Shown: positions 15,479 through 60,590, counted from the stretch's first letter. The stretch is 64,000 bases of DNA from Candidatus Pacearchaeota archaeon (GCA_016866975.1 VGKP01000002.1:18866-82865); one strand, 5' to 3'. Made by a program: numbers and translations. Notes: generated by a model not told the origin, from the sequence alone.

Positions 15479-16206
15479 TTAAAGCTTCTCAATCGCAGGC
15501 AAAATATCCTCAAATTTTGACAAAATCATTAATGGCTTTCCTTTTTTAAGGCGCCCTTTATCATGAAATCCGAAATCAACAGCAATTGTACGTAAGCCAA
15601 CCTTACTCGCTTCAAAAATATCCCCCAGAGTATCTGTTACAAATATGCATTCATCAATCTTTAAATTGTGCTTTGAAAAAAGTATCCTAAATTTCTCTTC
15701 TTTAGATTTGTGCGTTTCAAATCCTAGAATTTCGCTGAATATGTGATTTATGTCAAGGAACTTGACTAAAACTCCAGCTTTTAAGCTGGAGTTGTTCCTT
15801 GAGCATCCAAAAAACGAGCGCCTGCATCAAACTGCGGCTTTTAAGCCGCAGTGGCGCATCGTTTTTTTGATTTTATTGTTCATAAAATAACTCTTAATTA
15901 TGATTTCTTTATTCGAAGTTATAATATACATTTTATATTTTTTGTTTATTTTAGACAGCTCCTCTTTTATTCTTTCCTCAATTTTCAATACCTTGAACTC
16001 CTCTTCCTGTAACTTAAAGAATTCATCAATTGGGCGTAGTTCCTTTGAAAGTAATAAATTGTCATATTCTTTAAATGCATTTCCGTTGAACATGTCCTTA
16101 TAACTATTTTTAGAAATTGAGGGTTTAATTTTTTATATATGCTGTATGCCAGATTAAAAGTGTCATGTATGACGCCATCAAAATCAAAGATAACCGACTT
16201 GATCAT
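15479..16206 (-). pseudogene. HAD-superfamily phosphatase, disrupted by a 1-nt frameshift and by repeat copy A
   Basis: Motif I MIKSVIFDFDGVIHDT (16206 down). Frame shift near 16120-16124 (CCC run). Motif II YIITSN. The ORF then reads into the repeat (..KKTMRHCGLKAAV stop). The C-terminal part FVTDTLGDIFEASKVGLRTIAVDFG continues in the same phase after the repeat and stops at 15479-15481. Confidence 0.8.
15748..15877 (+). mobile_element. Nested-hairpin repeat, copy A (short form, about 130 nt), inserted in HAD gene
   Basis: TTATGTC-CAAGGAAC-ttgactaaaa-CTCCAGC-ttttaa-GCTGGAG-tt-GTTCCTTG ... GCGCC-tgcatcaaa-CTGCGGC-ttttaa-GCCGCAG-t-GGCGC-atcgTTTTTTTGATTTTATT. Identical to copy B. Confidence 0.8.
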
Positions 16207-16212
16207 ATTAAA

Positions 16213-16288
16213 TAGCGCGGGTGGGATTTGAACCGCACGACCTCGAGGTTATGGGCCTCGCGAGCACTCCAGGCTGCTCTACCGCGCT
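16213..16288 (-). tRNA. tRNA-Met (CAU), initiator-like (A1:U72), with atypical C33 and a bulged T-stem
   Basis: Reverse complement reads AGCGCGG-TA-GAGC-AGCCTGGAGT-GCTC-G-CGAGG-CCCATAA-CCTCG-AGGTC-GTG(C)GG-TTCAAAT-CCCAC-CCGCGCT-A. Confidence 0.7.
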
Positions 16289-16338
16289 GATGATACAGCG
16301 GAGCAAGACCTTTTAAAGGTTGCTACCTTTAAAGTACG

Positions 16339-16920
16339 ATGAAGAAGAGTCAGAAGAGCAAAAGGGAGAACATCTGGAATATTCCTAATACTCTGACCTT
16401 TATCAGGGTAGTAATAACTTTCGCGATTATATACTTGATTTTTGCAAGATTTAGTCTTGTCACCGTGGCAATATTTTTTATAATAGGTATGCTTACTGAT
16501 TTTCTAGATGGCCAGATTGCCAGGCGTACAAAGACAGTGACTGAGTTTGGAAGGCAATTTGACATGATCGCAGACAGATTTTTGATGACCATGACTGCCA
16601 TTGCCTTAATTATCGATTTCAGCATACAGGGAGTATTGACCAGATCTCACATGTTCCAGGTTTTCCTCATCCTTTCAAGGGAAATTGTCAGTTTTCCTTT
16701 CGCCATAGTTGCATTCGTCTGGAGGAAGCCAGTGCCAGATGCAAGATTTATTGGCAAACTGACCACATTCATGCAAGGCGTGACTCTTCCCGCAATACTC
16801 TTGAGTACTAAAAATGAAGTGTTCTCATTTTCATTATATCTAGCAATAGCCACATGCATAATAGGTATATTTTCTGCATTAACTTACGTTAAGGACTTAC
16901 AGAATGAGGGATTATCATAA
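16339..16920 (+). CDS. CDP-alcohol phosphatidyltransferase (archaetidyl-serine/inositol-phosphate synthase type)
   Basis: Motif DFLDGQIARRTKTVTEFGRQFDMIADR = D(x)2DG(x)2AR(x)8G(x)3D(x)3D. Multi-TM. Confidence 0.85.
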   Translation: MKKSQKSKRENIWNIPNTLTFIRVVITFAIIYLIFARFSLVTVAIFFIIGMLTDFLDGQIARRTKTVTEFGRQFDMIADRFLMTMTAIALIIDFSIQGVLTRSHMFQVFLILSREIVSFPFAIVAFVWRKPVPDARFIGKLTTFMQGVTLPAILLSTKNEVFSFSLYLAIATCIIGIFSALTYVKDLQNEGLS

Positions 16921-17216
16921 TGGCAAAAAAGAATCGTTTCAAGACTATCCAAATTATTGAGAAGGAATTACACGATCACGTCATAGAATGGTTGGCCACA
17001 TTATTGACACTCATAGGAGCGATTTTGAATGCAGGATTGATAAAATTAAGTGTGCTCGACGGCTATACACTCTCATTCTATATTTGGTCAATTTCTAATA
17101 TTCTTTGGATAACCTTCGCTCTCAAGCACAAACACTGGAGTGTTTTCATAACATTTGCAGCACTTCTTTTAGTCAACATACTTTCAATTATTACAAACAA
17201 ACTTTGGTTATGGTGA
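16920..17216 (+). CDS. Hypothetical small membrane protein (98 aa)
   Basis: ATG overlaps the upstream stop. Three hydrophobic helices. Confidence 0.5.
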   Translation: MAKKNRFKTIQIIEKELHDHVIEWLATLLTLIGAILNAGLIKLSVLDGYTLSFYIWSISNILWITFALKHKHWSVFITFAALLLVNILSIITNKLWLW

Positions 17217-17233
17217 TGTTCCCTTAGCAAAAA

Positions 17234-17244
17234 CGTTTAAAAGC
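17234..17244 (+). promoter_or_regulatory. BRE/TATA-like box (CGTTTAAAAGC) for tRNA-Ser(GCU)
   Basis: About 30 nt upstream of the tRNA 5' end at 17267. Same motif class as other promoters in the window. Confidence 0.45.
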
Positions 17245-17266
17245 ATTTGATTCTAACCCCAAGTAT

Positions 17267-17415
17267 GCCCGGATGGCCCAGCGGTTACGGCGCGAGATTG
17301 CTACCTAAGGAAACCAATGTTTCCTTGTGGGTCAACCTTCTTTAAGGAAGGAAGACGCAAATGGCAAATATCTCGTTTCCGAAAGGATTCCCAGGTTCAA
17401 ATCCTGGTCCGGGCG
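17267..17415 (+). tRNA. tRNA-Ser (anticodon GCU), class II, with 66-nt intron at canonical 37/38 position (17304-17369)
   Basis: Acceptor GCCCGGA/TCCGGGC. Anticodon stem CGAGA/TCTCG, loop TTGCTA|intron|A. Long variable arm TTTCCGAAAGGATT. T arm CCAGG-TTCAAAT-CCTGG. A relaxed bulge-helix-bulge can be drawn (TGCT/GGCA helix flanked by 3-nt bulges). Confidence 0.85.
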
Positions 17416-17470
17416 TATTACCTTCTTGTGATTTTTGAGAGACTCCGAATCTCTAGAGTTTGCCTATAAT

Positions 17471-17524
17471 TTGTATTACAAAACCCAAACAAGGCTTAAT
17501 TAAAAATAAGCCTCGGTAATACAA
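17471..17524 (+). other. Nested hairpin with the same architecture as the repeat unit, abutting the integrase-fragment ATG
   Basis: Outer stem TTGTATTAC/GTAATACAA (9 bp), 5'-side A-rich bulge aaaacccaaaca, inner stem AGGCTTA/TAAGCCT (7 bp), loop attaaaaa, 2-nt 3' bulge. Confidence 0.4.
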
Positions 17525-17787
17525 TGAAGATAGATCCCTACAAACACAAGGAAAGGTACTTAGCCTGGAAAGAAGAAGCCATGAAAGGCATTTCATGCGT
17601 TTCTAAGGCTAATTTTGAGATAATAATGAGATTCCTTACAGATATGGAAGTAGGAGCAAATATAGCGAAAGGAAGCACAAAGGGGGCGAGAAGCTACATC
17701 CGCCTTAATACGCTCAGAGGAAAGCTTTGCTTCTTTGCTAAGAAATTTAACGGGGGCAAGCATGGATTATTATGTCAAGGAACTTGA
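17524..17787 (+). pseudogene. Tyrosine recombinase/integrase, N-terminal fragment truncated by repeat copy B
   Basis: MKIDPYKHKERYLAWKEE..NFEIIMRFLTDMEVGANIAKGSTKGARSYIRLNTLRGKLCFFAKKF resembles the N-terminal SAM-like domain of archaeal integrases (from memory). No catalytic R..HxxR..Y region. The last 6 codons lie in the repeat. Adjacent to a tRNA. Confidence 0.45.
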
Positions 17788-17899
17788 CTAAAACTCCAGC
17801 TTTTAAGCTGGAGTTGTTCCTTGAGCATCCAAAAAACGAGCGCCTGCATCAAACTGCGGCTTTTAAGCCGCAGTGGCGCATCGTTTTTTTGATTTTATT
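17770..17899 (+). repeat. Nested-hairpin repeat, copy B (short form)
   Basis: Identical to copy A over about 130 nt, including the TTATGTC left junction and the TTTTTTTGATTTTATT right end. Confidence 0.85.
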
Positions 17900-18028
17900 T
17901 TGATCTTGTGTCTGTGTTTTTTCCACCAATTTAGGACTAGAATCATTTTGTATATTGATCGAGAATAGGAAAACAGCTAAAATTACAAGTAATAAGCTCA
18001 ATCCAATAATGTAAAAGGTCTTTTTCAT
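17849..18028 (-). CDS. Possible small signal/TM peptide (59 aa) whose C-terminus is encoded by repeat copy B
   Basis: MKKTFYIIGLSLLLVILAVFLFS.. then ..NKIKKTMRHCGLKAAV, the same repeat-encoded tail as the HAD pseudo-ORF. Below the ORF-track cutoff. Uncertain. Confidence 0.3.
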   Translation of the reverse strand: MKKTFYIIGLSLLLVILAVFLFSINIQNDSSPKLVEKTQTQDQNKIKKTMRHCGLKAAV

Positions 18029-18406
18029 AAGAAATAGTAAACAATATCTATTATAAACTTGTCGGAATTCAAATATATGTTAATTTCATAATATCTTGCT
18101 CAATCTGAGATTATTGTGCCGCAAATTGTGTGATTACCTCTAAGTTTGTTGTTTAAAGGATTCGCTGAAAATACTATTAAAGCCGAAATAGTAATAACTA
18201 GGTAAAAAGTGTATATACAAGCCAAAGATTTTCAATTGTTCAAATTATCTATTTTATTTAGAAATATCTAAAGTAAGGTATATTTTTTATTAGTCAAGAG
18301 CTATTACCGTTTTTTAAAGAATCAATATCATTAAGAAATTATCTTCTGCTATCTATAACATTAAATACTGCTCTTACAAATTCCTCTTTTACACAAAGAG
18401 GGAAAT

Positions 18407-20212
18407 ATGGAACCAGAAATTATAATTCGAGAGTCATTTTCGGATGAAAGTGACGAGTTTTTTGATAAGATAGAGAAGAAAAACTTTGATTCCAAGGAGA
18501 TAATGGAACTTAAGATTGAAGCAGAGGAAGTATCTCAGGACAATGAGATTAAGGAGCTTTTGTCTTATGAGTCTATAAAGAAATCTCTTGAATATGACCT
18601 TCCTCATCAAAGGGAAGGCGCTCTTAAGATATTGAGAGATCTTAACGGCTCAGGCTTGCTTGCTGACGAAGTAGGTCTTGGAAAGACAGTGACGGCCGGC
18701 ATCGCATTGAGGGAATGTATAGAACGCGGACTAGTGAAGAACACTCTTATCCTGACTCCTCCCTCATTAGTAGATCAATGGGTTGCAGAGCTTAAGGAAA
18801 AATTTAATCTTGACTTCAAAATCATTGAAAAAGAAGAAGACTGGGGCACTTCACCATTTGTCATTGCTTCTCTTGATAGGGTGAAGATACAATACAAAGA
18901 TACTCAGATTTTCAAACATGACCGGGCACATAATATCTCCTGGGACCTGTTGATTGTGGATGAGGCTCACAAATTGAAGGATAAGAATACAGTAAGATGG
19001 GAGTTTGTCGATAAATTGAAGAAAAAGAGGTTTCTGATACTTACAGCTACACCTTTTCAGAATGACTTGTTCGAGTTGTACAATCTTCTAAACCTTCTGA
19101 AGAGGGGCCATCTTGGAACTATCCAGGAATTTAAGAAGCAATTCCTTCATAGAGGAAATAAAAGGCACCCTCTTAACCCCAATGACCTTAAGAGAAGACT
19201 TGACGAGGTAATGGTGAGAAGGAGAAGAGATCAAACAAAAGTAAGTTACAGGAAAAGAATACCTAAGATAGTACCTGTAGAACTTTCTCAGGAAGAGTAT
19301 AGGATATATGATTCCATCTGCGATCTTCTCAAGACAAAGTATCTCTCTGCAAATGGAAATGAGATAAATGGGAGACTGGTGATTTTTGCTATCTTGCCAA
19401 AAATAACTAGCTCATCTCGATCAGCAATGGAGTCGCTTAAGAAGATAGTGGATGATCAGAAATACCATCAGACAACAAGAGAGATAGCATCAAGAATACT
19501 CTCTGATTATAGAATGGTGAAGAAAGATTCAAAGATAGAGAAACTGGTTGAATTGGTTGGGAATATCCTTAAAGAAGAGAAAGATGCCAAGATGTTGATA
19601 TATACAAAACACCCCACTACATTAAGGTATATAGTTGAGAAACTTCAGCCTTTCAATTTAAAGATAGTTGAGTATCTTGGCGGGCTTGATAGAGAGGAGA
19701 AGTCAGAGATTGTAAAGAAGTTCAAAGAAGAGGCTCAGATAATGTTAAGCACAGAGACAGGCTCAGAAGGTCTAAATTTCCAGTTCTGCCATATCCTTAT
19801 CAATTATGATCTTCCATGGAATCCAATGGCTGTAGAGCAGAGGATTGGTCGTTTGGACAGGATTGGGCAGAAAAGCGATATGCAGATATACAGTCTCGCT
19901 ACAAAAAAGACTATTGAGGAGCATGTGGTAGATCTTATAATAAACAAGATGTGTTGCATAGGTCTTGTCATAGGAGAATTACCAATCATATTATTCAATC
20001 TGGGCCTAGATGAGCGCGGGACCGGCGGTGTGAATAAGATAGAAGAGATGCTTATGAATGCCTTTATTGATTCGAAGAATAATCTTGATATTTTTGCATC
20101 CGAGGTCGAAAAAATTGCCGAAATGTTGGAGAAAGGCATGGAAGATTACAAAAAGGCTAAGACTGCCACAATGGAGGTATTGGACAAGAATGAAGGAACT
20201 GGCGGAGCTTAA
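18407..20212 (+). CDS. SNF2/Swi2 family ATPase (helicase core only, 601 aa)
   Basis: Motifs LLADEVGLGKTVTAG (I), LLIVDEAHKLK (II), LILTATPFQNDLFELYNLL (III), STETGSEGLNFQ, NPMAVEQRIGRLDRIGQ (VI). Confidence 0.9.
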   Translation: MEPEIIIRESFSDESDEFFDKIEKKNFDSKEIMELKIEAEEVSQDNEIKELLSYESIKKSLEYDLPHQREGALKILRDLNGSGLLADEVGLGKTVTAGIALRECIERGLVKNTLILTPPSLVDQWVAELKEKFNLDFKIIEKEEDWGTSPFVIASLDRVKIQYKDTQIFKHDRAHNISWDLLIVDEAHKLKDKNTVRWEFVDKLKKKRFLILTATPFQNDLFELYNLLNLLKRGHLGTIQEFKKQFLHRGNKRHPLNPNDLKRRLDEVMVRRRRDQTKVSYRKRIPKIVPVELSQEEYRIYDSICDLLKTKYLSANGNEINGRLVIFAILPKITSSSRSAMESLKKIVDDQKYHQTTREIASRILSDYRMVKKDSKIEKLVELVGNILKEEKDAKMLIYTKHPTTLRYIVEKLQPFNLKIVEYLGGLDREEKSEIVKKFKEEAQIMLSTETGSEGLNFQFCHILINYDLPWNPMAVEQRIGRLDRIGQKSDMQIYSLATKKTIEEHVVDLIINKMCCIGLVIGELPIILFNLGLDERGTGGVNKIEEMLMNAFIDSKNNLDIFASEVEKIAEMLEKGMEDYKKAKTATMEVLDKNEGTGGA

Positions 20213-21461
20213 GGAATTCACGGCGAATTTTTTCAAGAATCTCGGCGCAAAGACTATATGGGAAGGGCAGATGCTCAGGGTAGATAAGGTACCAAAGGAT
20301 TTCGAGGATTTTTTCGGGAAGAAATCTCCTCTGAAGTTGGTCTTCGATAGGTCTGAGGAAGGTAAGGACACAGAACTTATCGCTAAGGGAAGCTTTTTGC
20401 TTAAGGCAATAGCTCTTTATCTCGAGAATAAAGGGCAAACGACTCTACTGAAATTAAGGGTTATGGATCCAAAAGAGCTTCTTAAGCACAAGGTTGTTTT
20501 CAATGATTGCGATATTTTTTCATTTGAAAAGAAACACAGCTATAAGACTATGGTCAGGTTCACTTTCCTTACTACATTCCAGTATCTTAATGAGAAAGAA
20601 CAGAAGATGATATCGATATATCTAGAGGAAGGTAAGCCAGTAACTTTCGATGAGAAAAGGTTCCAGTTTGAGGAAGGAAGAAAGGAAGATATAGAGATAT
20701 CTGGCATAAAGGAGAATTATTCAACATCTAAGGTTATTTTGAAAGAGCTTCTTAAGCCGCAGGTTGCAGATATAGGAACTAATTTGAAGTCTAAATTATC
20801 TAGGGAATTACAGAGGATAGATTCACACTATAAAAGACAAGAGGAGGAGATCGACAAACAAGTGCAATCATTAAACACGCAATTGAAAGAGCTTGAAGAT
20901 CCAAATAGCAAGGTCGACAAAAAGAATGCTGAGTTAAAATTAAAGAGAATCAATGAACAGTTGCAAAAAATAACTGAAGAAGATAAAAAGTCCAAGTTGA
21001 AAAAGGAAAAAGATTTCCTTCTTAATGATGAGGTCCAGAAGCACGGGCTCAATATGGATACCAAGCTTTTGAATACTACGGTGATATATTATCCAGTTTA
21101 CGAATGCAGGATGCTATTGAAAAATAACGAGGTCATTGGGAAGCCCTTAGATTTTTTATACGACTCAAAGGAGAGTAGCTTTACCTCTATAAATTGCGAA
21201 TCATGCAAGGAGTCTCTCTCTTCTCTGAAATTATGTTCATCCGGACATGTAATCTGCAAATCTTGCATTCTTCCATGCAAGGGTTGTACACAGGGATCCT
21301 GCAAGATATGCCAGTTCAGGAGATGTAATAGATGCGAGAGAGAATATTGCAAAAGATGTACTAAGAAGTGCAGCCGGTGCTTCAAGGAGTTCTGTAAGAC
21401 CCACGTCATTCCAACGAGCCCAACTAAGGTTTTATGTTTGGGATGCTCAGGGAATTTTTAA
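20190..21461 (+). CDS. SNF2-associated protein: YqhG-like N-terminal domain, coiled coil, C-terminal multi-CxxC zinc-ribbon cluster
   Basis: Start moved to the ATG at 20190 (MKELAELKEF..), overlapping the SNF2 stop by 23 nt. Lys/Glu-rich coiled coil (res about 210-300). C-terminal CESC..CSSGHVICKSC..CKGC..CKIC..CNRCEREYCKRC..CSRC..CLGC. Confidence 0.7.
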   Translation: MKELAELKEFTANFFKNLGAKTIWEGQMLRVDKVPKDFEDFFGKKSPLKLVFDRSEEGKDTELIAKGSFLLKAIALYLENKGQTTLLKLRVMDPKELLKHKVVFNDCDIFSFEKKHSYKTMVRFTFLTTFQYLNEKEQKMISIYLEEGKPVTFDEKRFQFEEGRKEDIEISGIKENYSTSKVILKELLKPQVADIGTNLKSKLSRELQRIDSHYKRQEEEIDKQVQSLNTQLKELEDPNSKVDKKNAELKLKRINEQLQKITEEDKKSKLKKEKDFLLNDEVQKHGLNMDTKLLNTTVIYYPVYECRMLLKNNEVIGKPLDFLYDSKESSFTSINCESCKESLSSLKLCSSGHVICKSCILPCKGCTQGSCKICQFRRCNRCEREYCKRCTKKCSRCFKEFCKTHVIPTSPTKVLCLGCSGNF

Positions 21462-21466
21462 AGTCT

Positions 21467-21811: not shown

Positions 21812-21856
21812 AATTTAACTAGAAATATTTTTAAATGTCATTCAAAGGCAAAAACC

Positions 21857-37572: not shown

Positions 37573-37796
37573 AGGGAACCTCGGCATCTTAAAGGGAGTT
37601 GACCCACAAGACGTCAGGAATAAAAGATTCCTGAGCGCGCTCAAGGACTTCGTCCTTGACGACCGTAGGTTTCTTAAAGGGAGTTGACCCACAAGAACCG
37701 TAGGTTCTTAGGAAGTTGACCCAAAAGGCCTCAAGAATCTGCCGATTCTTGACGGTCATCAGGGATTATAAATCCCTGAGAGAAACTTGGTTCCCT
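37573..37796 (+). repeat. Expanded composite member (H) of the hairpin-repeat family
   Basis: Closed by AGGGAACC/GGTTCCCT. Contains three tandem units CTTAAAGGGAGTTGACCCACAAGA (37588-37611, 37673-37696, degenerate 37707-37727) and two double-hairpin modules (37614-37659, 37731-37779). Confidence 0.7.
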
Positions 37797-37797
37797 T

Positions 37798-37810
37798 AGG
37801 TTTAAATATC
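37798..37810 (+). promoter_or_regulatory. BRE/TATA-like box (AGGTTTAAATATC) for serS
   Basis: TATA about 29 nt upstream of the serS ATG (37830), implying a leaderless or near-leaderless mRNA. Confidence 0.5.
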
Positions 37811-39139: not shown

Positions 39140-40576
39140 ATGAATTTTAATTGGATTTTTAATCGTGATGAAAAAGTACCGCTCAATAATGATTCTTCGG
39201 AGAGAGTGGAAGGATTTGAGCACGAGTATGCGATTGAATTTGATGAGATCGCTGATAAAGATGAAAGAGACAACTATATTGTGCAGAAATTACGGGGAGC
39301 GGAGGGCGTTAATGCCCCCAATGTTTATGGTATGCCTGCGCGGCACCGTTTTAATGGAGGAAGAGTGCACATTGATATGAAACATCTTGAAGGGTGTACA
39401 CCAGAAGTTACGAATACATTGGATTTACTGAAATACGATCGAGAGTTAGACCTGTTTGTTCTTGATCTCTTTGGCCCAGCATACAAACCACGAATTTACA
39501 AAATGAGTAGGGACGCTCGCGATACATTTGGCGGACTTCACAGAAACATCATGACTAGGCTTAAACCCGATGTTCGGGACAGAGAATCACTCTTACTTTG
39601 GGCAGTAGTGGAGAAAGTTCTCAATGGAACAGGTTACCAGAATCCTGATGGCCAATACGAACTGCTTCAACGTCGCACATACATAGGAGATGCTCTATCA
39701 GACAACTCTACAGGGGGCAAAGGATCTCGGCCACTTCTTAATCTTAGGGAAGAGAGACACTGTAAGGTAGATGGATGGTACCGTTTTCATGATATTGCAG
39801 GCGATGGTAACATGAATCAGGTAGCACTTGCTCTTAGCCAGGTGCTCTGGAAATGTGTTCTACAGCTAGCAGAAGAAGATAAGCTGCCAAGAATCCCATA
39901 TTATTCAGGAAAGCATTCAAATGAAGCCGTACGCGATATGGATAGCATTTGCTGCCGCCACAGTGACTGGACTCTCAAAGGAACACCTCTTGAATTTAGA
40001 TCTCTCACTTCTGTCTATCGCGAATTCTACAAAGTCATTAGAGGAGAGCTCTATGGTCAGAATACATTTACTGACAAAATAATTGATGTATTTGGAGACA
40101 CAATTCCTGCTCTAGATAATATCAATAATGATCCCTATGCTCTTGCAGGAAGGCTCGATTGGGTGGGAAAGAAATTCATGATTGAATATTTTATGGGTGC
40201 AACAGGAAGAGGTCCTGAAAGCAATGAAGTACAGAGCCTTAATGTAGATTATCACCGTATTGACGAAGGAGGTTTGTTCCATCTTACACGTTTAAACGAT
40301 GGGTGGATTGAGAACGAGGTTTCGGATAAAGAGGCGCGCACCGCCAGAAATACTCCTCCATTGACACGGGCGCATGCACGAGGAGAAATTGCACAAGCAT
40401 TCTCAGAGATTGCCATGAAGAATGGATTATCCATTCTTGTTGACTGGGAATCAATTGCTCTTTACAATAAAAGTACATCTCCTGTCTGGACGTGCAATTT
40501 TCCCAGACCAGCACACACTTATGTTGAATGCGTGAGTGAATTCAAAAGTTTCATCAGTAATTGTTCCAAGGCATAA
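39140..40576 (+). CDS. Pup-ligase/deamidase (PafA/Dop) family protein, divergent paralogue (active-site HENY replaced by HRNI)
   Basis: GFEHEYAIEF, NGGRVHIDMKHLEGCTPE, FGGLHRNI, GSRPLLNLREERH, RFHDIAGDGNM, RLDWVGKKFMIEY, LNVDYHRI, TPPLTRAHARGE, VDWESI. Collinear with PafA motifs as I remember them. Confidence 0.75.
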   Translation: MNFNWIFNRDEKVPLNNDSSERVEGFEHEYAIEFDEIADKDERDNYIVQKLRGAEGVNAPNVYGMPARHRFNGGRVHIDMKHLEGCTPEVTNTLDLLKYDRELDLFVLDLFGPAYKPRIYKMSRDARDTFGGLHRNIMTRLKPDVRDRESLLLWAVVEKVLNGTGYQNPDGQYELLQRRTYIGDALSDNSTGGKGSRPLLNLREERHCKVDGWYRFHDIAGDGNMNQVALALSQVLWKCVLQLAEEDKLPRIPYYSGKHSNEAVRDMDSICCRHSDWTLKGTPLEFRSLTSVYREFYKVIRGELYGQNTFTDKIIDVFGDTIPALDNINNDPYALAGRLDWVGKKFMIEYFMGATGRGPESNEVQSLNVDYHRIDEGGLFHLTRLNDGWIENEVSDKEARTARNTPPLTRAHARGEIAQAFSEIAMKNGLSILVDWESIALYNKSTSPVWTCNFPRPAHTYVECVSEFKSFISNCSKA

Positions 40577-40710
40577 ATTATTACTTTAAAATTCGTGGGG
40601 CCGTGGGTCAGTTTAGCAAAGCTTAAACCTTCGGGAGGTATGCACCTCATACACCAAATAAGCAATATAAACATATAAAATATTAAAAAGGGTTTATATT
40701 TGCCAAATTG

Positions 40711-42177
40711 ATGAAAGACAGGATTACACCTCGCGAAGCATTGGAAAGAAAAGCTGCCCCTCTCGTGTTTTTTGACCATATTCCTCAATATAACCGGAAT
40801 CGAATAATCTCGAGTGAACAGGAGAATGGGCAGAAATTAAGGAAAAAAGTGCATAAGGATTACGAAAAGAAAAGTGGTTGGGAGACCGAATTTACAGCAT
40901 ACTTGTCTGGATTTCTGCCAGATGTGGTGAGTCTTGGGGGAAGGATATATGCAGATGCAAACCATGTAGAGTTTGCACGGGCGGAATGCTCAAGCCCTCT
41001 GGAAGCAGTTGTTCACGAGGATGCTTTTGACAGGTTCGGTTTTAATCTTCTCACAGGCACCTTGAGACTTGTTCGTAAGCTCTATAAGAACAGTATAGAT
41101 TTTGGCAATCCGAAAAGGAATTCTCCTCCTGTAAGCTTCGGCTTCCACGAAAATTACAGCACAAAAATAATGTTTGGCCAAAGCAATCCTTCAGGTTTGT
41201 TGGCATTGGTTCCTCACCTAATATCTCGTACAATCTTTGGGGGTGCAGGATCATTACATAAGGCAAATAAATTTTTAAGGGCCCAGCGCTCTCTCTTTGT
41301 TAATAAATTGTGGAGCTTTAATGCTATCAAGGACGAAAGAGGGATAATCTGCACTCGCGTACAGCCACACACAGAGATTTCTGGTCTTCAGAGGCTACAA
41401 CTTACTTGTGGAGACGCCCTTATATCTCCAGTAAATCGCTTCCTTCTTTATGGCACAACAGCAACGGTAGTTGACCTAATAGAAGATAGGATAATTCCAT
41501 TATGTGATTATGACACAAGCTACGCAGTTGAAGATTTTCATGGAATAACTTATGACCCTGAGAACTATATATTAAGAGGGTTCCCATCTAAGAATTGGAC
41601 TGCTCTGGATGTACAAAGGAGGATTCTTGATAGTGCAATTAAGTCTTACTCGCATAGGGATCCTCAGACAAATGCCATTCTGTTTCTATGGGAAGATACT
41701 CTTAATAAGTTGGAATATGATCCATTTCAGCTTGTTGGAAGGCTAGATGCAATTACCAAGAAAGCATTATATACTTGTCTTGATGAGAGATTTCCAGATG
41801 TCCCTGAAGATTCTTTTTGGCAGATGAGGGGCATAGACATGAATTATCACGATATTAATCCAAACTATAGTATTTTTCAGGTAATGCGTTCCGAGGGGAT
41901 TATGGAGGATTTATATTCCAATAAATTATTTTCATGGTATATGCAAAATCCGCCTCCAAAAACCAGGGCGCATTTTAGGGGCAATCTTGCAAAAATTCTA
42001 ATTAGGGCAAAAGAGGATTTAGCAGTCCTTGATGGAGATGAATGGGATAAATGCGTTCCATTATCAGATATCTACAATATTTATCCGAATCTATGGGATT
42101 TAGATCTTTCTATAGATGACCCGTTTAATTCTTACAATGATCGTCTCACAGAGATAAAGGGAATTTTATCTCATTAA
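40711..42177 (+). CDS. Pup-ligase/deamidase (PafA/Dop) family protein, motifs intact
   Basis: GWETEF, GGRIYADANHVEFARAECSSP, FGFHENYS, SRTIFGGAG, AQRSLFV, RGIICTRVQPH, RLQLTCGDALISP, RLDAITKKALY, IDMNYHDI, PPPKTRAHFRGN. Confidence 0.8.
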   Translation: MKDRITPREALERKAAPLVFFDHIPQYNRNRIISSEQENGQKLRKKVHKDYEKKSGWETEFTAYLSGFLPDVVSLGGRIYADANHVEFARAECSSPLEAVVHEDAFDRFGFNLLTGTLRLVRKLYKNSIDFGNPKRNSPPVSFGFHENYSTKIMFGQSNPSGLLALVPHLISRTIFGGAGSLHKANKFLRAQRSLFVNKLWSFNAIKDERGIICTRVQPHTEISGLQRLQLTCGDALISPVNRFLLYGTTATVVDLIEDRIIPLCDYDTSYAVEDFHGITYDPENYILRGFPSKNWTALDVQRRILDSAIKSYSHRDPQTNAILFLWEDTLNKLEYDPFQLVGRLDAITKKALYTCLDERFPDVPEDSFWQMRGIDMNYHDINPNYSIFQVMRSEGIMEDLYSNKLFSWYMQNPPPKTRAHFRGNLAKILIRAKEDLAVLDGDEWDKCVPLSDIYNIYPNLWDLDLSIDDPFNSYNDRLTEIKGILSH

Positions 42178-42192: not shown

Positions 42193-42319
42193 TTATGTCG
42201 GGAACCGATGAAAATCACACCTTTCAAGGTATGGTGGTTCCCGAGCATCTCCAAAAACGAGCGCCTGCAACAAACCTCGGCTTTTAAGCCGAGGTGGCGC
42301 ATCGTTTTTGTGATATTTA
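42193..42319 (+). repeat. Nested-hairpin repeat, copy E (variant stems)
   Basis: TTATGTC-CGGGAACC-gatgaaaatc-..-GGTTCCCG-agcatctcc-AAAAACGAGCGCC-tgcaacaaa-CCTCGGC-ttttaa-GCCGAGG-t-GGCGC-atcgTTTTTG. Inner stem changed on both arms relative to A/B. Confidence 0.8.
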
Positions 42320-42849
42320 TATATACATAGAAGAAATTGATGATGGAAATAGATATAATTCAGGTAATGAGTGATTAAGATGGAAAATGTTCTCTTGAAA
42401 ATCAGGCAGAACTTAAACAAGTTACAATTAGGAGAATTTATTATTGCAGAGATCTGTTAAGGTTCTTAGATGAAAGTAACAGGACAAATGTCTATATTCT
42501 TGATGGATTTTTTATCTTTCAAGGAAGGTCCAGATTACGGGCCAGATTTTGTTACAGAGACAGCAACTGAAACCATAAAGGGGAGAGATGCATCCCCATT
42601 TATTCTCCGGTGCGCAAACTCACCTCAAGAGAAAAAAGCAAGAGAATTTGGCGTGAAATTTTTATAAGAGGTTTTCACAATAATGGAAAAGTTTTGCAGA
42701 GAGTTCAGCAACTTCTTCAAAATGCCAATAAAAACCAAAATTCAAGGAAAAATCACTTCAGCATCCAGCATTTATGCCTAGAAAAGGCAAAGACTCCAAT
42801 CAACAGCTGTCTTTATTTTAAATAAATTAAAAAGTAAGGAAATGTGTTT

Positions 42850-43074
42850 TTATTCAGTTATTTTATCGATGATTGCAAGCACAGCTCCCACTATTGTAAG
42901 GACTACAACAATCCATCCTGCGACTTGAGTTGTGGTCTCTAATTCAGGTATATACAATACTCCCTCGATCATTCCAAATCCTACAGCAAGTGATACCAAT
43001 ATTCCAGTTATCCAGAGTATTACGCCTAGAAGGATAGTAAGTGCCCGATTAGATCCTCTTCCATTTTTTGCCAT
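42850..43074 (-). CDS. Hypothetical small membrane protein (74 aa, two TM helices)
   Basis: Clean ORF, GGAGG-like SD (aggaggtg) upstream, strongly hydrophobic. Confidence 0.6.
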   Translation of the reverse strand: MAKNGRGSNRALTILLGVILWITGILVSLAVGFGMIEGVLYIPELETTTQVAGWIVVVLTIVGAVLAIIDKITE

Positions 43075-43198
43075 TATTCACCTCCTCAATATTAAGTAAT
43101 GTTCTAAATATATAAGGGTTCCTATTGCTATCGTCAACGCTCGTAGAAATCCTCTACCTATAGGTAGAGGTTAAAATTGGAATGATTTTCTCTGGAGA

Positions 43199-43258
43199 CA
43201 CAAAACCTCAAGCAAGTCCAGGCATTTAAGCCGAGGTTAAAACCCGAAGGGTTTTGTG
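43199..43258 (+). repeat. Degenerate fragment (G) related to hairpin 2 of the repeat family
   Basis: CACAAAACC..GGTTTTGTG outer stem enclosing CCTC[aagcaagtccag]GCATTTAAGCCGAGG (compare copy E CCTCGGCTTTTAAGCCGAGG). Confidence 0.35.
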
Positions 43259-43437
43259 ACTTTCAAAAAGCAGGCTGGCTATAAACTCCAAACTATTTAG
43301 AATAACATTAATTATCAAAATCCATTTTGTGATTTGTTAGATAGAAAATAGTGTGAGAAAATTACGGAAATTAAAGTTTTTTTCGTATAATTTGAAGTCA
43401 TAAAAGGTTTTATAAAATAAATTAAACTAAATAAAAT

Positions 43438-43953
43438 ATGAATGAATTTTTCAAAATAACAAAAGGAAAGCTAATCGCTTTTGGAGTTTTATTACTATTA
43501 GCTATCTATTTATGGGTGCCTGCCCCATATGCAGGGAACATTGTACAATTTCTAGGAGTATTTGGTGAAATATTAGGTAAAATTTCAATAATGATAAATT
43601 TCCCAATAGTCTTCCTATATGGGATTTTTTATAAATATAATCTTGTATTTTTTCTCTTGACACTAATTTATAACTATGTTATTATATGTTTAGTTGCAAA
43701 AATATTCAAAAAATATAATCCAGATTTACGTCTATTCCTAATAATTTTTGTAATATTGGAAATTTTAGCTTATGTTATTGGTTCATTTTACACTTGGAGA
43801 GCCGAATGCTTACCTTGTCGTATTGGCCATGAATGCCCGCCATGTCCATCTGGTAACTATGCTAATTTCTTCTTATTGGCAGGCATGATTCCAAATCTAA
43901 TACTTTCTTTTGTTATATCTACTCTTATTAAAAAATATAAAAAGAGAAAATAG
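43438..43953 (+). CDS. Hypothetical integral membrane protein with CxxC pair (CLPCRIGHECPPC)
   Basis: Very AT-rich, 5 hydrophobic helices. No family recognised. Confidence 0.5.
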   Translation: MNEFFKITKGKLIAFGVLLLLAIYLWVPAPYAGNIVQFLGVFGEILGKISIMINFPIVFLYGIFYKYNLVFFLLTLIYNYVIICLVAKIFKKYNPDLRLFLIIFVILEILAYVIGSFYTWRAECLPCRIGHECPPCPSGNYANFFLLAGMIPNLILSFVISTLIKKYKKRK

Positions 43954-56199: not shown

Positions 56200-56200
56200 G

Positions 56201-56497
56201 ATGTCCAAAGATATCACTTCTCACTATTATGAAAAGCTCTGTAAGACATTTGATAAATGGAGGTTAGGTGGAGAACAGACACATATTATTTGCTTTCATT
56301 TAAGTGAACTTGCCGAATTCTCTTCAAAGTATAAGAGGATTATTGATGATATCATCAAGCAACCAACTAAAAAGATGTTTCTTAAAAAATTGGAGTATTT
56401 TCACGGAGTATTAATGGAGAGACATGAAGTGAATTATCACCTTATTCCCGCAGATAATTTTTTAAGCGCTTGGTTCAAGAAGCTCGAAGATCTTTAA
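56201..56497 (+). CDS. Hypothetical protein (98 aa)
   Basis: Starts 2 nt after the pheT stop. No motif. Confidence 0.45.
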   Translation: MSKDITSHYYEKLCKTFDKWRLGGEQTHIICFHLSELAEFSSKYKRIIDDIIKQPTKKMFLKKLEYFHGVLMERHEVNYHLIPADNFLSAWFKKLEDL

Positions 56498-56538
56498 TTC
56501 TATTCCAAAACCCTCCTATTTAAATAAAGGTTATTAAA

Positions 56539-57006
56539 TCAACCGAAGTAATTTCTCTCTTTTTTTGTCGATGTGGAAGGTGGTATTCTTATTGTATCTA
56601 TGACTTGTATTAATGAGGGTTTCACGCTTTTCCATACAGAATAGATTTCTTTTATCGCATCGCATTCTTTCTTCTCGTTTGAGTCTATCTCGAGACTTAG
56701 TGATGTGAGGCTTAATGCACCAAGCTGGTCGTAAATCTTGATAAGGTTCTCCTTGTCTTTCATACTCATTGTCCTGAAATAGGGCTGGTATATTCTGGGC
56801 GCGTTCATCTGGTTGATAAGCATATCTAGCCAGGAAACGGAATTAAGGATTTTATCCATCATGATTTTTCGGATATTCTTTGCAAGAAGTTCAGTGTCAT
56901 CGTCTATCTTCTCTATGTCAAATGAAGAATTTAGTTCTGAGAATGTAGACAACTTGTATTTCTTTTCCAGTACAGCATATTCATTTTTCAATTTTTCAAT
57001 GTCCAT
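56539..57006 (-). CDS. Hypothetical protein (155 aa)
   Basis: Clean ORF. The antisense ORF 56813-57010 looks spurious. Confidence 0.5.
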   Translation of the reverse strand: MDIEKLKNEYAVLEKKYKLSTFSELNSSFDIEKIDDDTELLAKNIRKIMMDKILNSVSWLDMLINQMNAPRIYQPYFRTMSMKDKENLIKIYDQLGALSLTSLSLEIDSNEKKECDAIKEIYSVWKSVKPSLIQVIDTIRIPPSTSTKKERNYFG

Positions 57007-57119
57007 CTAATCTTAAGAAATTTTGGGTTTTTATATATGGTGGTGGACTGAAGTATTTTACCGCCACCATATTCGCGGGATATAAGTGGATAACTAAAAA
57101 TTTACGTCCCGCGCTATAT

Positions 57120-57440
57120 TCACTTGGGAGTACCTGTACCTCTTAGGCTGCTTAGAGATATCGTTGGAAAATTTAATCTTCTCCCGCTAGATTCAGCTTG
57201 ATTATAATCTCCCCTAATCATCTGAGGCGCTTTGTAACCTCTGGCTCCAGCAATTGCAGCAATGTAGCTCTGTGCATCCATTCCTCCCGCTCTTAGGCCT
57301 CCAGAATAATTTGATCTTGATGAGAATACAGGCACTCGAGGAAGGACATAAGTGTCTTCAGGCAATGGCCTCTCATAACTCCCTGTTCTGGGAGCCTCAT
57401 TGAAATCATGCAATCTTTGATTTGAAGGGATGTAATTCAT
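57120..57440 (-). CDS. Hypothetical Gly/Ser/Arg-rich protein (106 aa)
   Basis: Low-complexity but uninterrupted ORF. Uncertain. Confidence 0.4.
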   Translation of the reverse strand: MNYIPSNQRLHDFNEAPRTGSYERPLPEDTYVLPRVPVFSSRSNYSGGLRAGGMDAQSYIAAIAGARGYKAPQMIRGDYNQAESSGRRLNFPTISLSSLRGTGTPK

Positions 57441-57572
57441 ATAAAATCAACTTATGCTGGATTTTTAAATTTTTCTAAATGCGATCGACTCCTATCTAAT
57501 CTATCGATAGACAGTTCGGTTATGTCGCGAATTAGGTTGAAAACTACATTCTTTAGGGCGCAGATGAATTCG

Positions 57573-57649
57573 CGAGCATGTCTAAAAACGAGCGCTGCAA
57601 CAAACAATACCCTTTAAGGTATGGTGCGCATTGTTTTTATGATCTTCAA
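57573..57649 (+). repeat. Nested-hairpin repeat, copy F (solo second-hairpin unit, variant stems)
   Basis: CGAGCATgtctAAAAACGAGCGC-tgcaacaaaca-ATACC-ctttaa-GGTAT-g-GTGCGC-attgTTTTTATGATCTTC. Overlaps the 3' end of the cdd pseudogene. Confidence 0.7.
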
Positions 57650-58029
57650 AAAGCTTCTTTCCAAGGGAAAGGAAAAAGTTCTTTAAGTTTTACTTTCTGC
57701 TTCTTTGATACAATTACTCAAGTATTTTCTAGATTTTTCTCGCTCATATCATACATAATTTCTCTGCAAATCCCGCACGGAGGGATAACTTTATCTTTGT
57801 AAACTGCCACAATAGTTTTTATCTCTCTTTCATCAGGCATCATTTTAAAAAAGGCAGTTCTTTCTGCACAAATTCCAGTTTGGATATCTTCCATACTCAT
57901 TCCCTAGAAAATATTTCCTTTACTTGTTAATACAATAGCAGATACAGAATGTTTTTTTGAAACATATTTATTCTTTCCAAGATTTTCTGCTTTTTGAATT
58001 AATTCTTTATCCTCTTTTGTTAATTTCAT
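57646..58029 (-). pseudogene. cdd: Cytidine deaminase with two in-frame stop codons (TAG at 57904-57906, TGA at 57718-57720)
   Basis: One frame reads MKLTKEDKELIQKAENL..SAIVLTSKGNIF-TAG-GMSMEDIQTGICAERTAFFKM..PPCGICREIMYDMSEKNLENT-TGA-VIVSKKQKVKLKELFPFPWKEAF-stop. CAE and PCxxC zinc motifs and the LLPxxF-like tail are all present. Confidence 0.75.
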
Positions 58030-58351
58030 CTTTCAATAAAGAATTAATGATTTATAATTTTATCTTTCAACAATTACACTACTAAATCAACTGAGCCAAA
58101 GGTGAAGACTATCTCTTTTCTCTCAGAAAGAACCGTACGTGCCTCCCAGTTTTAACTCAAAGTACCTAAGAAAAGACAATAAACTACTCCTATTTTTTTC
58201 ACAGAAAAGGCTTTTAAAGGGCGGAGAATAGAAATATGTATGGAATTAAAGTGCCAACCTACAGGAAGGAATTCAATCACCTTTAGTTGGTACTTCCATA
58301 TGGCATAAGAGAGTATCTCTATACCAAATTAAACTTTTCTGATACCCTCTT

Positions 58352-58672
58352 ATGAAATCAACTTCTAAATTTAGTTCTGCATCTGAATGCTCTTCGGTGA
58401 CATCGTGTTTTTTGGCTATTGCCAGCCGAAAGTTAAACCGTAGAGAAAAATTAGTCTTAGGTCTAATTGCTTCTTCTGAGGAGAAGAGGACAGCAACCAA
58501 GACGGCTCAATCTCTAGCTGAGCAGCTGCAATGCGCAGAGTCTACTATCTGGGCGACTCTCAGGTCTTTGCGTTCCCTAGGCCTTGTAGTCTGCGAGCAG
58601 GAACAAGAAGCACTTACTCTCTCAAGGACAGCCAAGATTTTCATAAAGAGTAATGGGGTGCAACATGCTTGA
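58352..58672 (+). CDS. Small HTH protein (LuxR/sigma-70 region-4-like or MarR-like)
   Basis: LNRREKLVLGLIASSEEKRTATKTAQSLAEQLQCAESTIWATLRSLRSLGLV. By eye more GC-rich than its surroundings. Start uncertain. Confidence 0.45.
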   Translation: MKSTSKFSSASECSSVTSCFLAIASRKLNRREKLVLGLIASSEEKRTATKTAQSLAEQLQCAESTIWATLRSLRSLGLVVCEQEQEALTLSRTAKIFIKSNGVQHA

Positions 58673-58855
58673 CCTCAATCTAGTTGAAAGAGTAGCAGGG
58701 CTTATCTCAAGAAATGCCCTAAAAATGGGGATTTCAAAAATCCTCTACTGAGACGACAACGGAAAATGGTGGTGAGCGGCGAAAACACTTAAATTTGTTA
58801 CTTAATAAAGGCAACATATGGAAAGATTTAAATAACAAATAAAAAACGATAAAGT

Positions 58856-59494
58856 ATGAATGATGTAGTTTACCACGCATCACCAAAGCAAGGACTTGGT
58901 GTAATCAATCCTCTTTCAGACAATAAGAATGGTAGAAAAGTAGTATGTGCTTCAAAGGACGAAGTTATTGCATCATTATTTCTTGGAAGAACTGGTGGAG
59001 ATTATACTTGCTGTTTAGGAAGAGAAATAATTTTTAATATTCCTTATTTAGTTGAAAGATTCCCTGGGGCTTTCAGATTGAAATATAATATTCCAGCATC
59101 ATTGTATGAACTTCCATCATCAACTTTTTTTAATGATGGCTCAACTTGGGATGATGAAGTTATTTCACATGAGCCAGTAAAACCTGTCAGAGAAAATAAA
59201 ATTGTTAATGCTGGAGAACATCTATTGCATCTAGAAACACAAGGCAAGTTACATATTTACCTATATCTCCATAGAATAGCAGCAATTCCGGATGATGATT
59301 CAGATTTAGTTGAAAAATCTTTAATGTGGGCAAAATCTAAAGGGTTAGATGAAGTGTTAAAACAAGTAAGAAGATTTCATCCAGGGCTTGTTGATAGAAT
59401 TAAACAAGAATGGATTGCATTAAAAAAAATTAAACTATTCTCTTTAAAACCAGGTTTCTTACACAAAAATAAAAAAGCCTCCGCCGAGAATTGA
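58856..59494 (+). CDS. Hypothetical protein (212 aa)
   Basis: Clean ORF with a GATTTAAATAA box upstream. The last 19 nt overlap tRNA-Thr on the opposite strand. Confidence 0.5.
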   Translation: MNDVVYHASPKQGLGVINPLSDNKNGRKVVCASKDEVIASLFLGRTGGDYTCCLGREIIFNIPYLVERFPGAFRLKYNIPASLYELPSSTFFNDGSTWDDEVISHEPVKPVRENKIVNAGEHLLHLETQGKLHIYLYLHRIAAIPDDDSDLVEKSLMWAKSKGLDEVLKQVRRFHPGLVDRIKQEWIALKKIKLFSLKPGFLHKNKKASAEN

Positions 59495-59548
59495 ACTCGG
59501 GACCCCCACCTTACCAAGGTGGTACTCTACCGGCTGAGCTACGGAGGC
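59476..59548 (-). tRNA. tRNA-Thr (anticodon GGU)
   Basis: Reverse complement: GCCTCCG-TA-GCTC-AGCCGGTA-GAGT-A-CCACC-TTGGTAA-GGTGG-GGGTC-CCGAG-TTCAATT-CTCGG-CGGAGGC-T. Confidence 0.9.
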
Positions 59549-59587
59549 ATATGGACAATGTAAAAATCAAGATATAAAAAGTCTCTG

Positions 59588-59785
59588 TTAAGGCAGCCAA
59601 TCAAGCTTTAGCGCATTTCCTGTAATTGTGGCTGCCTGTGAGACAAGCTTAATGATCCAAAGACTATATTTCTCTATGAAGACATTTCTTTCATCTGTTT
59701 TTTGCACATGTAATCCTTCATTACTTATTATAAAGAAACCTCCCAGGAGAAGAAATGTTATCAGTAGAAGCGAGACTAATCTCAT
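59588..59785 (-). CDS. Hypothetical small membrane protein (65 aa)
   Basis: N-terminal TM helix. The start overlaps the stop of the upstream gene by 4 nt. Confidence 0.4.
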   Translation of the reverse strand: MRLVSLLLITFLLLGGFFIISNEGLHVQKTDERNVFIEKYSLWIIKLVSQAATITGNALKLDWLP

Positions 59786-60111
59786 GATTCTATCACTGTC
59801 TCATTGCTTTGATCCCGAGGTATTGCTTGCCAGTCTTGCTGTACGGCATAAGAAGACACTTTACCAAGATTTGAGAATATTGTGCCGATCCATTTGAAAT
59901 AAAGTTGACCTGCCTCTGCAATCCCATCAAAAGAAGTCAAGTCAACATCATTGTTAAAATAAACTACTACTGCCGAACCCACAAGAAGAAGCAGAAATAT
60001 CGCTATAATCATATGGGTGGCTCTATGTCTTACTTCTCTGAATCTTAAGAAGACAAATACTATGAGTGCCGCAACAATTATCAATGTCCAGTTCATTTTC
60101 ACCTCATTCAA
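59782..60111 (-). CDS. Hypothetical membrane protein (109 aa, two TM helices)
   Basis: Hydrophobic N-terminal half. Coupled to the downstream small ORF. Confidence 0.5.
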   Translation of the reverse strand: MNEVKMNWTLIIVAALIVFVFLRFREVRHRATHMIIAIFLLLLVGSAVVVYFNNDVDLTSFDGIAEAGQLYFKWIGTIFSNLGKVSSYAVQQDWQAIPRDQSNETVIES

Positions 60112-60180
60112 TTAAGGAGTGACTAATTATATAAAAATCTTTCTTTACCTGTAAATTATTCACATAAATGCTTTTAAGTC

Positions 60181-60432
60181 ATGGTTTCCTTAAAAGTATG
60201 GATGGGAGTCACAGGAAATCCGCTAAATTTGGGAGTTCTAGAGAAAAGAGTCAAAGACATGGTTGTTGGAGAGAAAGGATTTATCGAGTATAGGGCAATC
60301 TGTTTTATTGAAGGCCAGGTACATTGTCTGAATTTATGTGCAAATGTATATCCAAATTTTAGACAAAAGAAGGGCATGCCTATAGAAAGGATTGGAAAGA
60401 GAAAAATTGATTATGTCAAGGAACTTGACTAA
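60181..60432 (+). CDS. Hypothetical ORF whose last 7 codons lie in repeat D (possibly the 5' half of a gene split by the repeat)
   Basis: The ORF ends ..KIDYVKELD with the stop inside the repeat. See the finding on frame arithmetic. Confidence 0.35.
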   Translation: MVSLKVWMGVTGNPLNLGVLEKRVKDMVVGEKGFIEYRAICFIEGQVHCLNLCANVYPNFRQKKGMPIERIGKRKIDYVKELD

Positions 60433-60590
60433 AACTCCAGCTTTTAAGCTGGAGTTGTTCCTTGAGCATCCAAACCTCAAGAATATTCTATTCTTGATGG
60501 CATCCAAGAACAATGTTCTTGGTGAAACGAGCGCCTGCATCAAACTGCGGCTTTTAAGCCTCAGTGGCGCATCGTTTTTTTGATGATATT
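60411..60590 (+). repeat. Nested-hairpin repeat, copy D (long form with one double-hairpin module at 60475-60524)
   Basis: Same as A/B plus a 50-nt module CCTCAAGAATattctATTCTTGAtggcaTCCAAGAACaatGTTCTTGGTG. One mismatch in the inner stem of hairpin 2 (GCCTCAG). Confidence 0.85.

Follow-up and report, generated by a model that had tools for sequence, protein, structure and literature searches.

What are the folded repeats that recur, always on the same strand, through a 64,000-nt stretch of DNA from Candidatus Pacearchaeota archaeon (GCA_016866975.1 VGKP01000002.1:18866-82865; the whole of this stretch is called the window below)? An initial annotation made from the sequence treated them as one dispersed element and proposed an unrecognized element class. 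Our analysis of the window and of related contigs (loci designated L) indicates that the family is a real, structurally constrained repeat of DPANN archaea, and the mobility of its two main subfamilies, called A-type and E-type below, is well supported. We lean toward viewing these A/E repeats as nonautonomous single-stranded DNA (ssDNA) elements that are mobilized in trans and resemble PATEs, although our preference is only somewhat stronger than even. PATEs, or palindrome-associated transposable elements, are nonautonomous derivatives of IS200/IS605 insertion sequences (IS) that have been described in haloarchaea and cyanobacteria. The proposal of a new class was overstated, as the repeats are a variant of hairpin-type nonautonomous elements.

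The copies in the window (A to F, plus the related fragment G) all lie on the plus strand. Copies A and B (15748-15877 and 17770-17899) are 100% identical over 130 nt, as first reported, and C and D have 149 nt in common at 95% identity, whereas E and F are diverged members of the family. A 32-nt unit is present 10 times in the window, and the sequence TTATGTC marks the left junction of A, B, C, D, E, and F. Closer inspection changed the description of several other loci. Copy F had been taken for a second half only, but it is full length with a decayed first unit. Copy C is indeed composite, but it consists of two elements, C1 and an internally deleted C2. Locus G is related to the family as proposed; rather than a degenerate copy, it is a piece of a variant that has another terminal hairpin (AAAACCC-GAA-GGGTTTT), and L014 (near 9076) and L011 show this same variant. 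Finally, locus H, which had been listed as an expanded copy, shares only mini-hairpin modules and a GGGAACC/GGTTCCC stem with the elements and is discussed separately below.

A basic copy of ~122 nt is predicted to fold as two bulged hairpins with a free energy of -61.7 kcal/mol (z = -8.7 versus shuffles), which agrees with the two-unit architecture originally described. Imperfect subterminal hairpins are thus present at both ends, but terminal inverted repeats are not: GTCAAGGAAC... at one end and ...TTTTTTTGAT at the other do not form an inverted repeat. Two subfamilies predominate, namely the A-type (AAGGAAC / CTCCAGC / CTGCGGC, with tail T7-GAT) and the E-type (GGGAACC / CCACACC / CCTCGGC, with tail T5-GTGAT). 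Rarer variants are represented by F, L003, L005, and L025/L023. Some copies (L023, L029, L007, and L015) are mosaics in which halves, and even the two arms of one stem, come from different subfamilies.

Among 35 distinct copies, standard base pairs occupy 97.3% of the cells, compared to 85% when partners are shuffled and ~43% when partners are slid. Double-sided changes are observed for 24 of the 44 pairs, and none of 500 shuffles reaches the observed values. Because this alignment was fitted to the model and a few subfamilies dominate it, these numbers correspond to a modest number of independent events, carried by ~10 variants. The compensatory stem changes described earlier are nevertheless borne out. 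In one variant (L025 8645 and L023 7006), unit 2 has an outer stem that has changed from AAACGAGCGCC/GGCGCATCGTTT to GCACGAGTGCC/GGCACATCGTGC with every pair kept. This change compensates even the pairing between the A-run and the T-run (AAAGCACGAGTGCC...GGCACATCGTGCTTT) and breaks the T-run to T4, which argues that pairing to the very end is conserved rather than the T-tract. Structure is therefore constrained, and not sequence alone. A comparison with Rfam returned only tRNAs at the gathering threshold, and nothing matched the elements at E <= 5. In copy F, we observed that the 5' arm of inner stem 1 (57541-57566) reads CTACATTC and differs from the expected partner of GGGCGCAG by four G/C-to-A/T transitions, all in this single arm.

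Identity among copies begins at GTC and the element ends in T(T/G)TGAT. In a comparison of 47 distinct left flanks, T is found at position -4 in 45, A at position -2 in 45, and T at position -1 in 46, whereas position -3 is T in 36, G in 5, A in 4, and C in 2. This variation among otherwise identical copies suggests that TNAT is a target-like sequence and not part of the element. Positions -9 to -5 are T-rich, and the flanks diverge beyond -9. There is no sign of target duplication in these copies, given that the abutting repeat averages 2.46 nt versus 2.54 nt for shuffled partners. The right end of the element is itself a TNAT preceded by Ts, and tandem insertions are found exactly after the TGAT of another element (L014 9012, ...GGGTTTTGTGAT|GTCGGG) or 3 nt after the end of another element (L005, and C1/C2 in the window). 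One further copy begins 4 nt past the 3' end of a tRNA-Lys gene, within the T-run of this tRNA.

The uniform orientation seen in the window extends to other contigs. Orientation within a contig is concordant in 22 of 23 comparisons, with same-strand counts outside the window of 3/3, 3/3, 3/3, 4/4, and 3/3, along with several of 2/2. All A/E copies are intergenic and often abut gene ends. The orientations of the upstream and downstream genes relative to the element are same/same for 10 copies, opposite/same for 8, opposite/opposite for 8, and same/opposite for 4, and gene orientation does not account for the uniform orientation of elements on each contig. The suggestion that copies mostly reside 3' of plus-strand genes did not hold across 41 copies. 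This arrangement is seen in the window because the plus strand carries 83% of its coding sequence and because the elements prefer T-runs. We also considered GC skew as an indicator of the replication strand, but it follows the coding strand in short loci and was unusable.

The family extends well beyond the window. With six diverse copies as the basis of a covariance model, we located ~40 full copies across 285 kb of contigs from related DPANN archaea, and the density of elements is about one copy per 8-10 kb. A metagenome scan yielded 31 loci, of which ~25 are real, and nearly all are from one lake-sample series (Ga01941xx); L010, L026, L027, L032, L034, and L035 were set aside because they matched by chance in DNA of high GC content. 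Copies that are at least 98% identical are present at more than 15 loci whose flanks are unrelated, and Logan contigs break off inside the repeats. These sequence comparisons suggest that the family has proliferated recently. Neither element end was found in IMG/VR, and we found no description of such elements for DPANN archaea (Pacearchaeota/Woesearchaeota) in the literature.

Two distant contigs also carry the element. Their PafA-like proteins are only 43-46% identical to those of the window, although the Na/H-exchanger / SerRS / PafA synteny is kept. One of them (L037) has a nearly identical A-type unit 1, and in the other (L040), the first 29 nt of the left end, with one mismatch, are joined via four mini-hairpins to an intact 25 nt of the right end. 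The presence of near-identical ends in such distant hosts points to recent invasion or transfer. One pattern scan over species-representative genomes gave matches in a Woesearchaeota metagenome-assembled genome (MAG) and in a 123-kb contig whose record assigns it to 'Candidatus Liptonbacteria bacterium', a member of the candidate phyla radiation (CPR). This contig (VGJV01000002.1, which is Ga0194121_10000124 and includes L004 / L018 / L031 / L033) has the repeats alone in common with the window, at 100% identity, and also carries a tRNA with a ~150-nt archaeal-type intron. Because of this intron and the shared repeats, the contig is probably a mis-binned DPANN contig.

A separate peculiarity was noticed in L021 (178-301), L036 (423-1039), and L029 (539-619), where all hairpin loops are reverse-complemented and the stems are unchanged (for example, CTTTTAAG -> CTTAAAAG and TTTCAA -> TTGAAA). 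This affects all loops in the two contigs of sample Ga0194120 and one copy elsewhere, and it could reflect loop inversion by template switching or an artefact of library preparation.

No transposase or integrase domain was detected by a Pfam search of the ~50 open reading frames (ORFs) of the window, in agreement with the initial annotation. As a lead only, we used an IS200 TnpA sequence as a tblastn query, and this matched the ends of L015 and L024. Their translation (...LWGGEFWSDGGYAGTVGEGVNADIILRYIQQQG...) corresponds to the C-terminus of a Y1 transposase with 79 homologues, nearly all of which have PF01797, and several of which are annotated 'IS200/IS605 family transposase, partial [Candidatus Pacearchaeota archaeon]'. 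A full-length relative (the L042 copy) matches PF01797 at 7e-28. On the basis of these matches, the Y1 enzyme class is present in these genomes, and the tnpA fragments on the element-bearing contigs L015 and L024 are in the orientation of the elements.

Several additional features of these genes were recorded. Contigs from three assemblies stop at the same nucleotide inside the IS200-type tnpA (L015 14192-14374, L024 4654-4836, and L041 1-192) and their right flanks differ, which implies at least three IS copies in the population that are near-identical upstream of the breakpoint. The DPANN-like contig L046 carries two different IS200-type tnpA genes located 450 nt apart (2815-3195 and 3642-4079), each with its own flanking hairpins, and an in-frame stop interrupts the first of them. 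We also looked for a full-length element with cargo, but the unpaired left ends at L005b, L011 2594, L029 539, and L009 931 proved to be truncated or hybrid copies and not IS ends.

IS200/IS605 elements have top-strand hairpins at both ends, insert their left end 3' of an element-specific tetra- or pentanucleotide, couple transposition to the lagging-strand template, and carry a guide immediately 5' of the foot of the hairpin (PMC5027513). These rules appear to match our observations better than the alternatives considered, and from them we infer an ssDNA mechanism, the identity of the enzyme, and a role for the bulges. The element, with both of its bulged hairpins on one 'top' strand, would be excised by a hairpin-recognizing HUH transposase (Y1, IS200/IS605-type) supplied in trans. 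Where DNA is single-stranded elsewhere, the same enzyme would then reinsert the element 3' of a T-rich TNAT, with no target duplication. The T-rich TGAT end of a resident copy would serve as a new target, which would explain the tandem copies. Likewise, the T-runs that follow genes (archaeal terminators and tRNA 3' ends) would be natural targets, and this would explain why some copies are located directly after genes. The A-rich stretch 5' of each inner hairpin would occupy the position of the IS200/IS605 guide. These stretches end in ...CTAAAAC and ...ATCAAAC, and ATCAAA is complementary to the terminal TTTGAT of the A-type, although little weight can be given to this complementarity because both sequences are of low complexity.

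A number of observations weigh against this interpretation. The ends of the resident IS200 copies are unrelated to those of the element: their hairpins are CCCCRNGG-TCTTG-CCNYGGGG and their right end closes in AGSTTCAC. The element is therefore not a deletion derivative of this IS. No autonomous parent or cognate enzyme was found in the ~330 kb examined, and the element is absent from 46 kb of other IS200-bearing DPANN loci. The left hairpin begins right at the presumed cleavage site, a place where IS608 has a spacer of ~19 nt. The opposite strand folds equally well, the excess of G.U over A.C is weak (19 vs 9), and the deleted copies C2 and L040 retain their ends and lose hairpin pairing. Co-orientation is the single observation from which a lagging-strand preference is inferred, and L037, the sole exception, carries one plus-strand and one minus-strand copy. 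Furthermore, a comparison of empty and filled sites, which had been suggested as a check, produced no pair for any A/E copy among the loci compared; the sole empty site seen is that of H, in syntenic relatives.

The resemblance to PATEs that was first proposed thus survives in part. The element is a structure-constrained dispersed repeat that comes closest to these IS200/IS605-derived elements. Like PATEs, it is short and noncoding, has subterminal hairpins in place of terminal inverted repeats, inserts beside a fixed short motif without target duplication, and shows a strand bias in a host genome with Y1 transposase genes. Unlike PATEs, its ends do not match those of the resident IS200 copies. 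In addition, the nested, bulged hairpin at each end closes exactly at the terminus, double mini-hairpin modules of 50 nt optionally occupy three fixed positions, and the host lineage is DPANN (Pacearchaeota/Woesearchaeota). Because the test for shared ends failed, we class the element as one that works like a PATE and not as a proven PATE. Classical MITEs (transposable elements of the miniature inverted-repeat type), along with BOX, Correia, and enterobacterial repetitive intergenic consensus (ERIC)-type repeats, are similarly modular and intergenic with strong folding potential, but a classical MITE is bounded by terminal inverted repeats and duplicates its target. Both features were sought in the element and are absent.

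A possible but much less probable alternative is that the copies act as functional RNA or DNA in the manner of repetitive extragenic palindromes (REPs), for example as terminators, 3'-end stabilizers, or small RNAs, in a compact genome, and are spread and made uniform mainly by recombination or gene conversion. Such a role is compatible with mobility. The strictly intergenic positions that often abut gene ends, the covarying fold, and the exchange between subfamilies evident in the mosaics are all in keeping with it, and unit 2 (an A-run, a GC-rich hairpin, and T7) is terminator-like in both directions. However, an RNA role does not predict a uniform orientation per contig that is independent of neighboring genes, and the divergence of the flanks beyond -9 leaves no conserved promoter upstream. 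A simple scan for bacterial-type terminators does not call the copies, and the variant in L025 has its T-run cut to T4 with the pairing compensated. Moreover, the TNAT junction and the identical copies in distant genomes require an insertion mechanism in any case.

A further comparison is with REPs, bacterial interspersed mosaic elements (BIMEs), and their REP-associated tyrosine transposases (RAYTs; TnpA_REP of Proteobacteria). Both families comprise high-copy extragenic imperfect palindromes with modular composites and conserved structure, probably handled by Y1 HUH enzymes and possibly with side effects as terminators or stabilizers. In contrast to REP/BIME sequences, the two hairpins of the element are direct and not inverted repeats, there is no GTAG-type 5' tetranucleotide, and no repeat-flanked RAYT was seen, as the tnpA genes that were found have their own unrelated hairpins. 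The near-identity of element copies across distant genomes also fits recent mobility better than long domestication. An RNA-level role as a terminator or stabilizer may exist alongside mobility, as it does for REPs.

We consider it improbable that a different type of enzyme moves the element, such as a Y2 HUH protein (IS91/Helitron-like), an IS110/IS1111-type transposase, or a tyrosine recombinase acting on folded strands (attC/Xer-like). The absence of target duplication, a fixed junction, a single orientation, and subterminal hairpins also occur in those systems, and the outer stems end in ...GGAAC/GTTCC..., which vaguely resembles the attC core AAC/GTT. In L005 (5905-6708), a gene for a XerA-like tyrosine recombinase (Phage_integrase, 6e-46) starts 53 nt from the left end of the tandem pair and is divergent. 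XerA is a housekeeping protein in archaea, so that this single adjacency is weak evidence and is probably coincidental, and no such enzyme was seen beside other copies or in the window. Unlike integron attC sites, the stems read RRGGAAC/GTTCCYY and not RYYYAAC/GTTRRRY, the flanking genes are housekeeping genes rather than cassettes, and the window has no integrase. The termini do not conform to TC...CTRR.

Returning to the PATE-like elements themselves, long forms reach ~225 nt by means of 50-nt double mini-hairpins located at three fixed places: in loop 1, in the linker at CATCCAAA^, and in loop 2 after the first loop base. These places hold both in the organism of the window and in another species (L003). 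All mini-hairpins, as well as the outer stem of unit 1, fit the pattern xTC-RRGRAY...RTYCYY-GAx', in which transitions are compensated, and none of these mini-hairpins stands alone in the window. The same double mini-hairpin is found in long-form A/E copies, in H, and in the ~150-nt intron of a tRNA-Lys(CTT) (L018 7858-8079, minus strand). Over ~100 nt, H is ~90-97% identical to this intron, and two syntenic relatives have an empty site (72 and 92 nt) in place of H. Locus H is a paralogue of the tRNA-Lys intron and not a copy of the element. The H module also makes up the 5' leader of a further tRNA (L014 6548-6650, minus strand), and a short form of it lies in reverse orientation in the introns of the tRNA-Ser of the window and of another tRNA. 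Intron sequence in these archaea thus appears to be built from dispersed hairpin modules.

Archaeal tRNA (bulge-helix-bulge) introns have been proposed to transpose from one tRNA gene to another, and they resemble our modules in that H and the double mini-hairpins occur in introns at position 37/38 and also outside tRNAs. Another reading is that the modules represent, or descend from, bulge-helix-bulge introns that moved among tRNA genes and into intergenic transcripts. It would draw on these shared sequences (the tRNA-Lys intron, the tRNA leader, the reversed short forms, and the double mini-hairpins), but we judge it very unlikely: the A/E elements lie outside tRNAs and interrupt no demonstrable gene, they form no bulge-helix-bulge (3-nt bulges around a 4-bp helix), their variable flanks cannot supply a conserved splice helix, the module is found in either orientation inside tRNA introns, which is indicative of an event at the DNA level, and the link is via shared modules only.

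Coordinates and composition of the elements and related features in the window
Feature	Coordinates	Strand	Form	Details
Copy A	15748..15871	+	A-type short form	TTAT target-like flank 15748-15751, then GTC; unit 1 outer stem TCAAGGAAC/GTTCCTTGA, 5' bulge TTGACTAA, inner hairpin 15770-15793; linker GCATCCAAAAAA; unit 2 outer stem AACGAGCGCC/GGCGCATCGTT, bulge TGCATCAA, inner hairpin 15831-15852; right end T7, then GAT
tRNA-Ser(GCU)	17267..17415	+		68-nt intron at position 37/38
Copy B	17770..17893	+	Same sequence as A	355 nt downstream of the intron-bearing tRNA-Ser
Copy C1	21467..21691	+	A-type long form	50-nt double mini-hairpin in linker (CCAAA^AAACG); 51-nt one in loop 2 (CT^TTTAAG)
Copy C2	21692..21805	+	Internally deleted, in tandem with C1	E-type left arm and bulge joined to unit-2 inner hairpin (loop modules) and right end
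H	37573..37800	+	Distinct composite	Three copies of CTTAAAGGGAGTTGACCCACAAGA and four mini-hairpins in a GGGAACC/GGTTCCC stem
Copy E	42193..42314	+	E-type short form	Begins 16 nt past the second Pup-ligase-like gene; outer stem GGGAACC/GGTTCCC, inner stem 2 CCTCGGC/GCCGAGG, tail TTTTTGTGAT
G	43198..43260	+	Right-end fragment of a variant	Unit-2-like hairpin, AAAACCC-GAA-GGGTTTT, GTGAC
Copy F	57520..57643	+	Diverged, full length, decayed unit 1	Covariance model score 96.5 bits; outer stem 1 GCGAATT/AATTCGC; inner stem 1 with one arm decayed; inner stem 2 CAATACC/GGTATGG
Copy D	60411..60584	+	A-type, double mini-hairpin in linker only	Between tRNA-Thr and tRNA-Gln

The window belongs to a DPANN archaeal genome: it has a GC content of ~38%, encodes archaeal-type PheRS beta, SMC, and IleRS, and carries the intron-bearing tRNA-Ser(GCU), and one of its proteins is 100% identical to FJZ18_01115 of a MAG named Candidatus Pacearchaeota archaeon. 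Two genes for Pup ligases (PafA/Dop-like, PF03136) are arranged in tandem at 39140-40576 and 40708-42177 in this DPANN archaeon, and the archaeal contigs L037 and L040 have one PafA orthologue each. The 1.1-kb region between copies E and G (42320-43440) has no ORF of 100 or more amino acids and contains only ORFs of 55-74 amino acids on both strands, which is unusual given the compact genome.

Some reading frames run into the repeats. A UVR-domain ORF (60564-60818) is open from a GTG inside the right end of copy D, and its database homologue FJZ18_01260 is also 84 amino acids long. In the A-type element, the frame that starts at its own ATG stays open as far as the right end, and in L011 (49-660) and L014 (80-260) this frame continues without a stop into a long downstream ORF. 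Gene callers may be extending genes into the repeat. We rejected the possibility that the element is a coding sequence, as the E-type has an in-frame stop and a 1-nt indel in the linker and the changes in the stems are of the compensatory and not the synonymous kind. The notion that copy D interrupts a gene is also unsupported, for no homologue extends across the junction, even though the ORFs on either side are in frame with each other.

DPANN archaea have genomes of ~1 Mb that are thought to be strongly streamlined. In such small genomes, a repeat that is present about once per 8-10 kb and that breaks assemblies is notable. The covariance model can be used to flag mis-binned contigs and can account for contig breaks in DPANN MAGs. 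If the element moves as ssDNA, it would serve as a natural indicator of the direction of replication in uncultivated archaea, and its hairpins would be a compact substrate for a Y1/HUH enzyme that recognizes ends differently from IS608 and ISDra2. It would also offer a concrete lead on the sequence source of long tRNA introns in these lineages, and the link between the element and tRNA-intron sequence is worth following. More speculatively, and with considerable doubt, we raise the idea that in DPANN archaea one mini-hairpin grammar builds the mobile element (specific for site and strand, and lacking an autonomous partner related in sequence), the optional modules in its loops and linker, and large parts of tRNA introns and leaders as an undescribed system of building blocks. 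The responsible enzyme could then be new too, and if one ssDNA machinery moves all of the hairpin modules, the gain and growth of tRNA introns would be a by-product of hairpin transposition.

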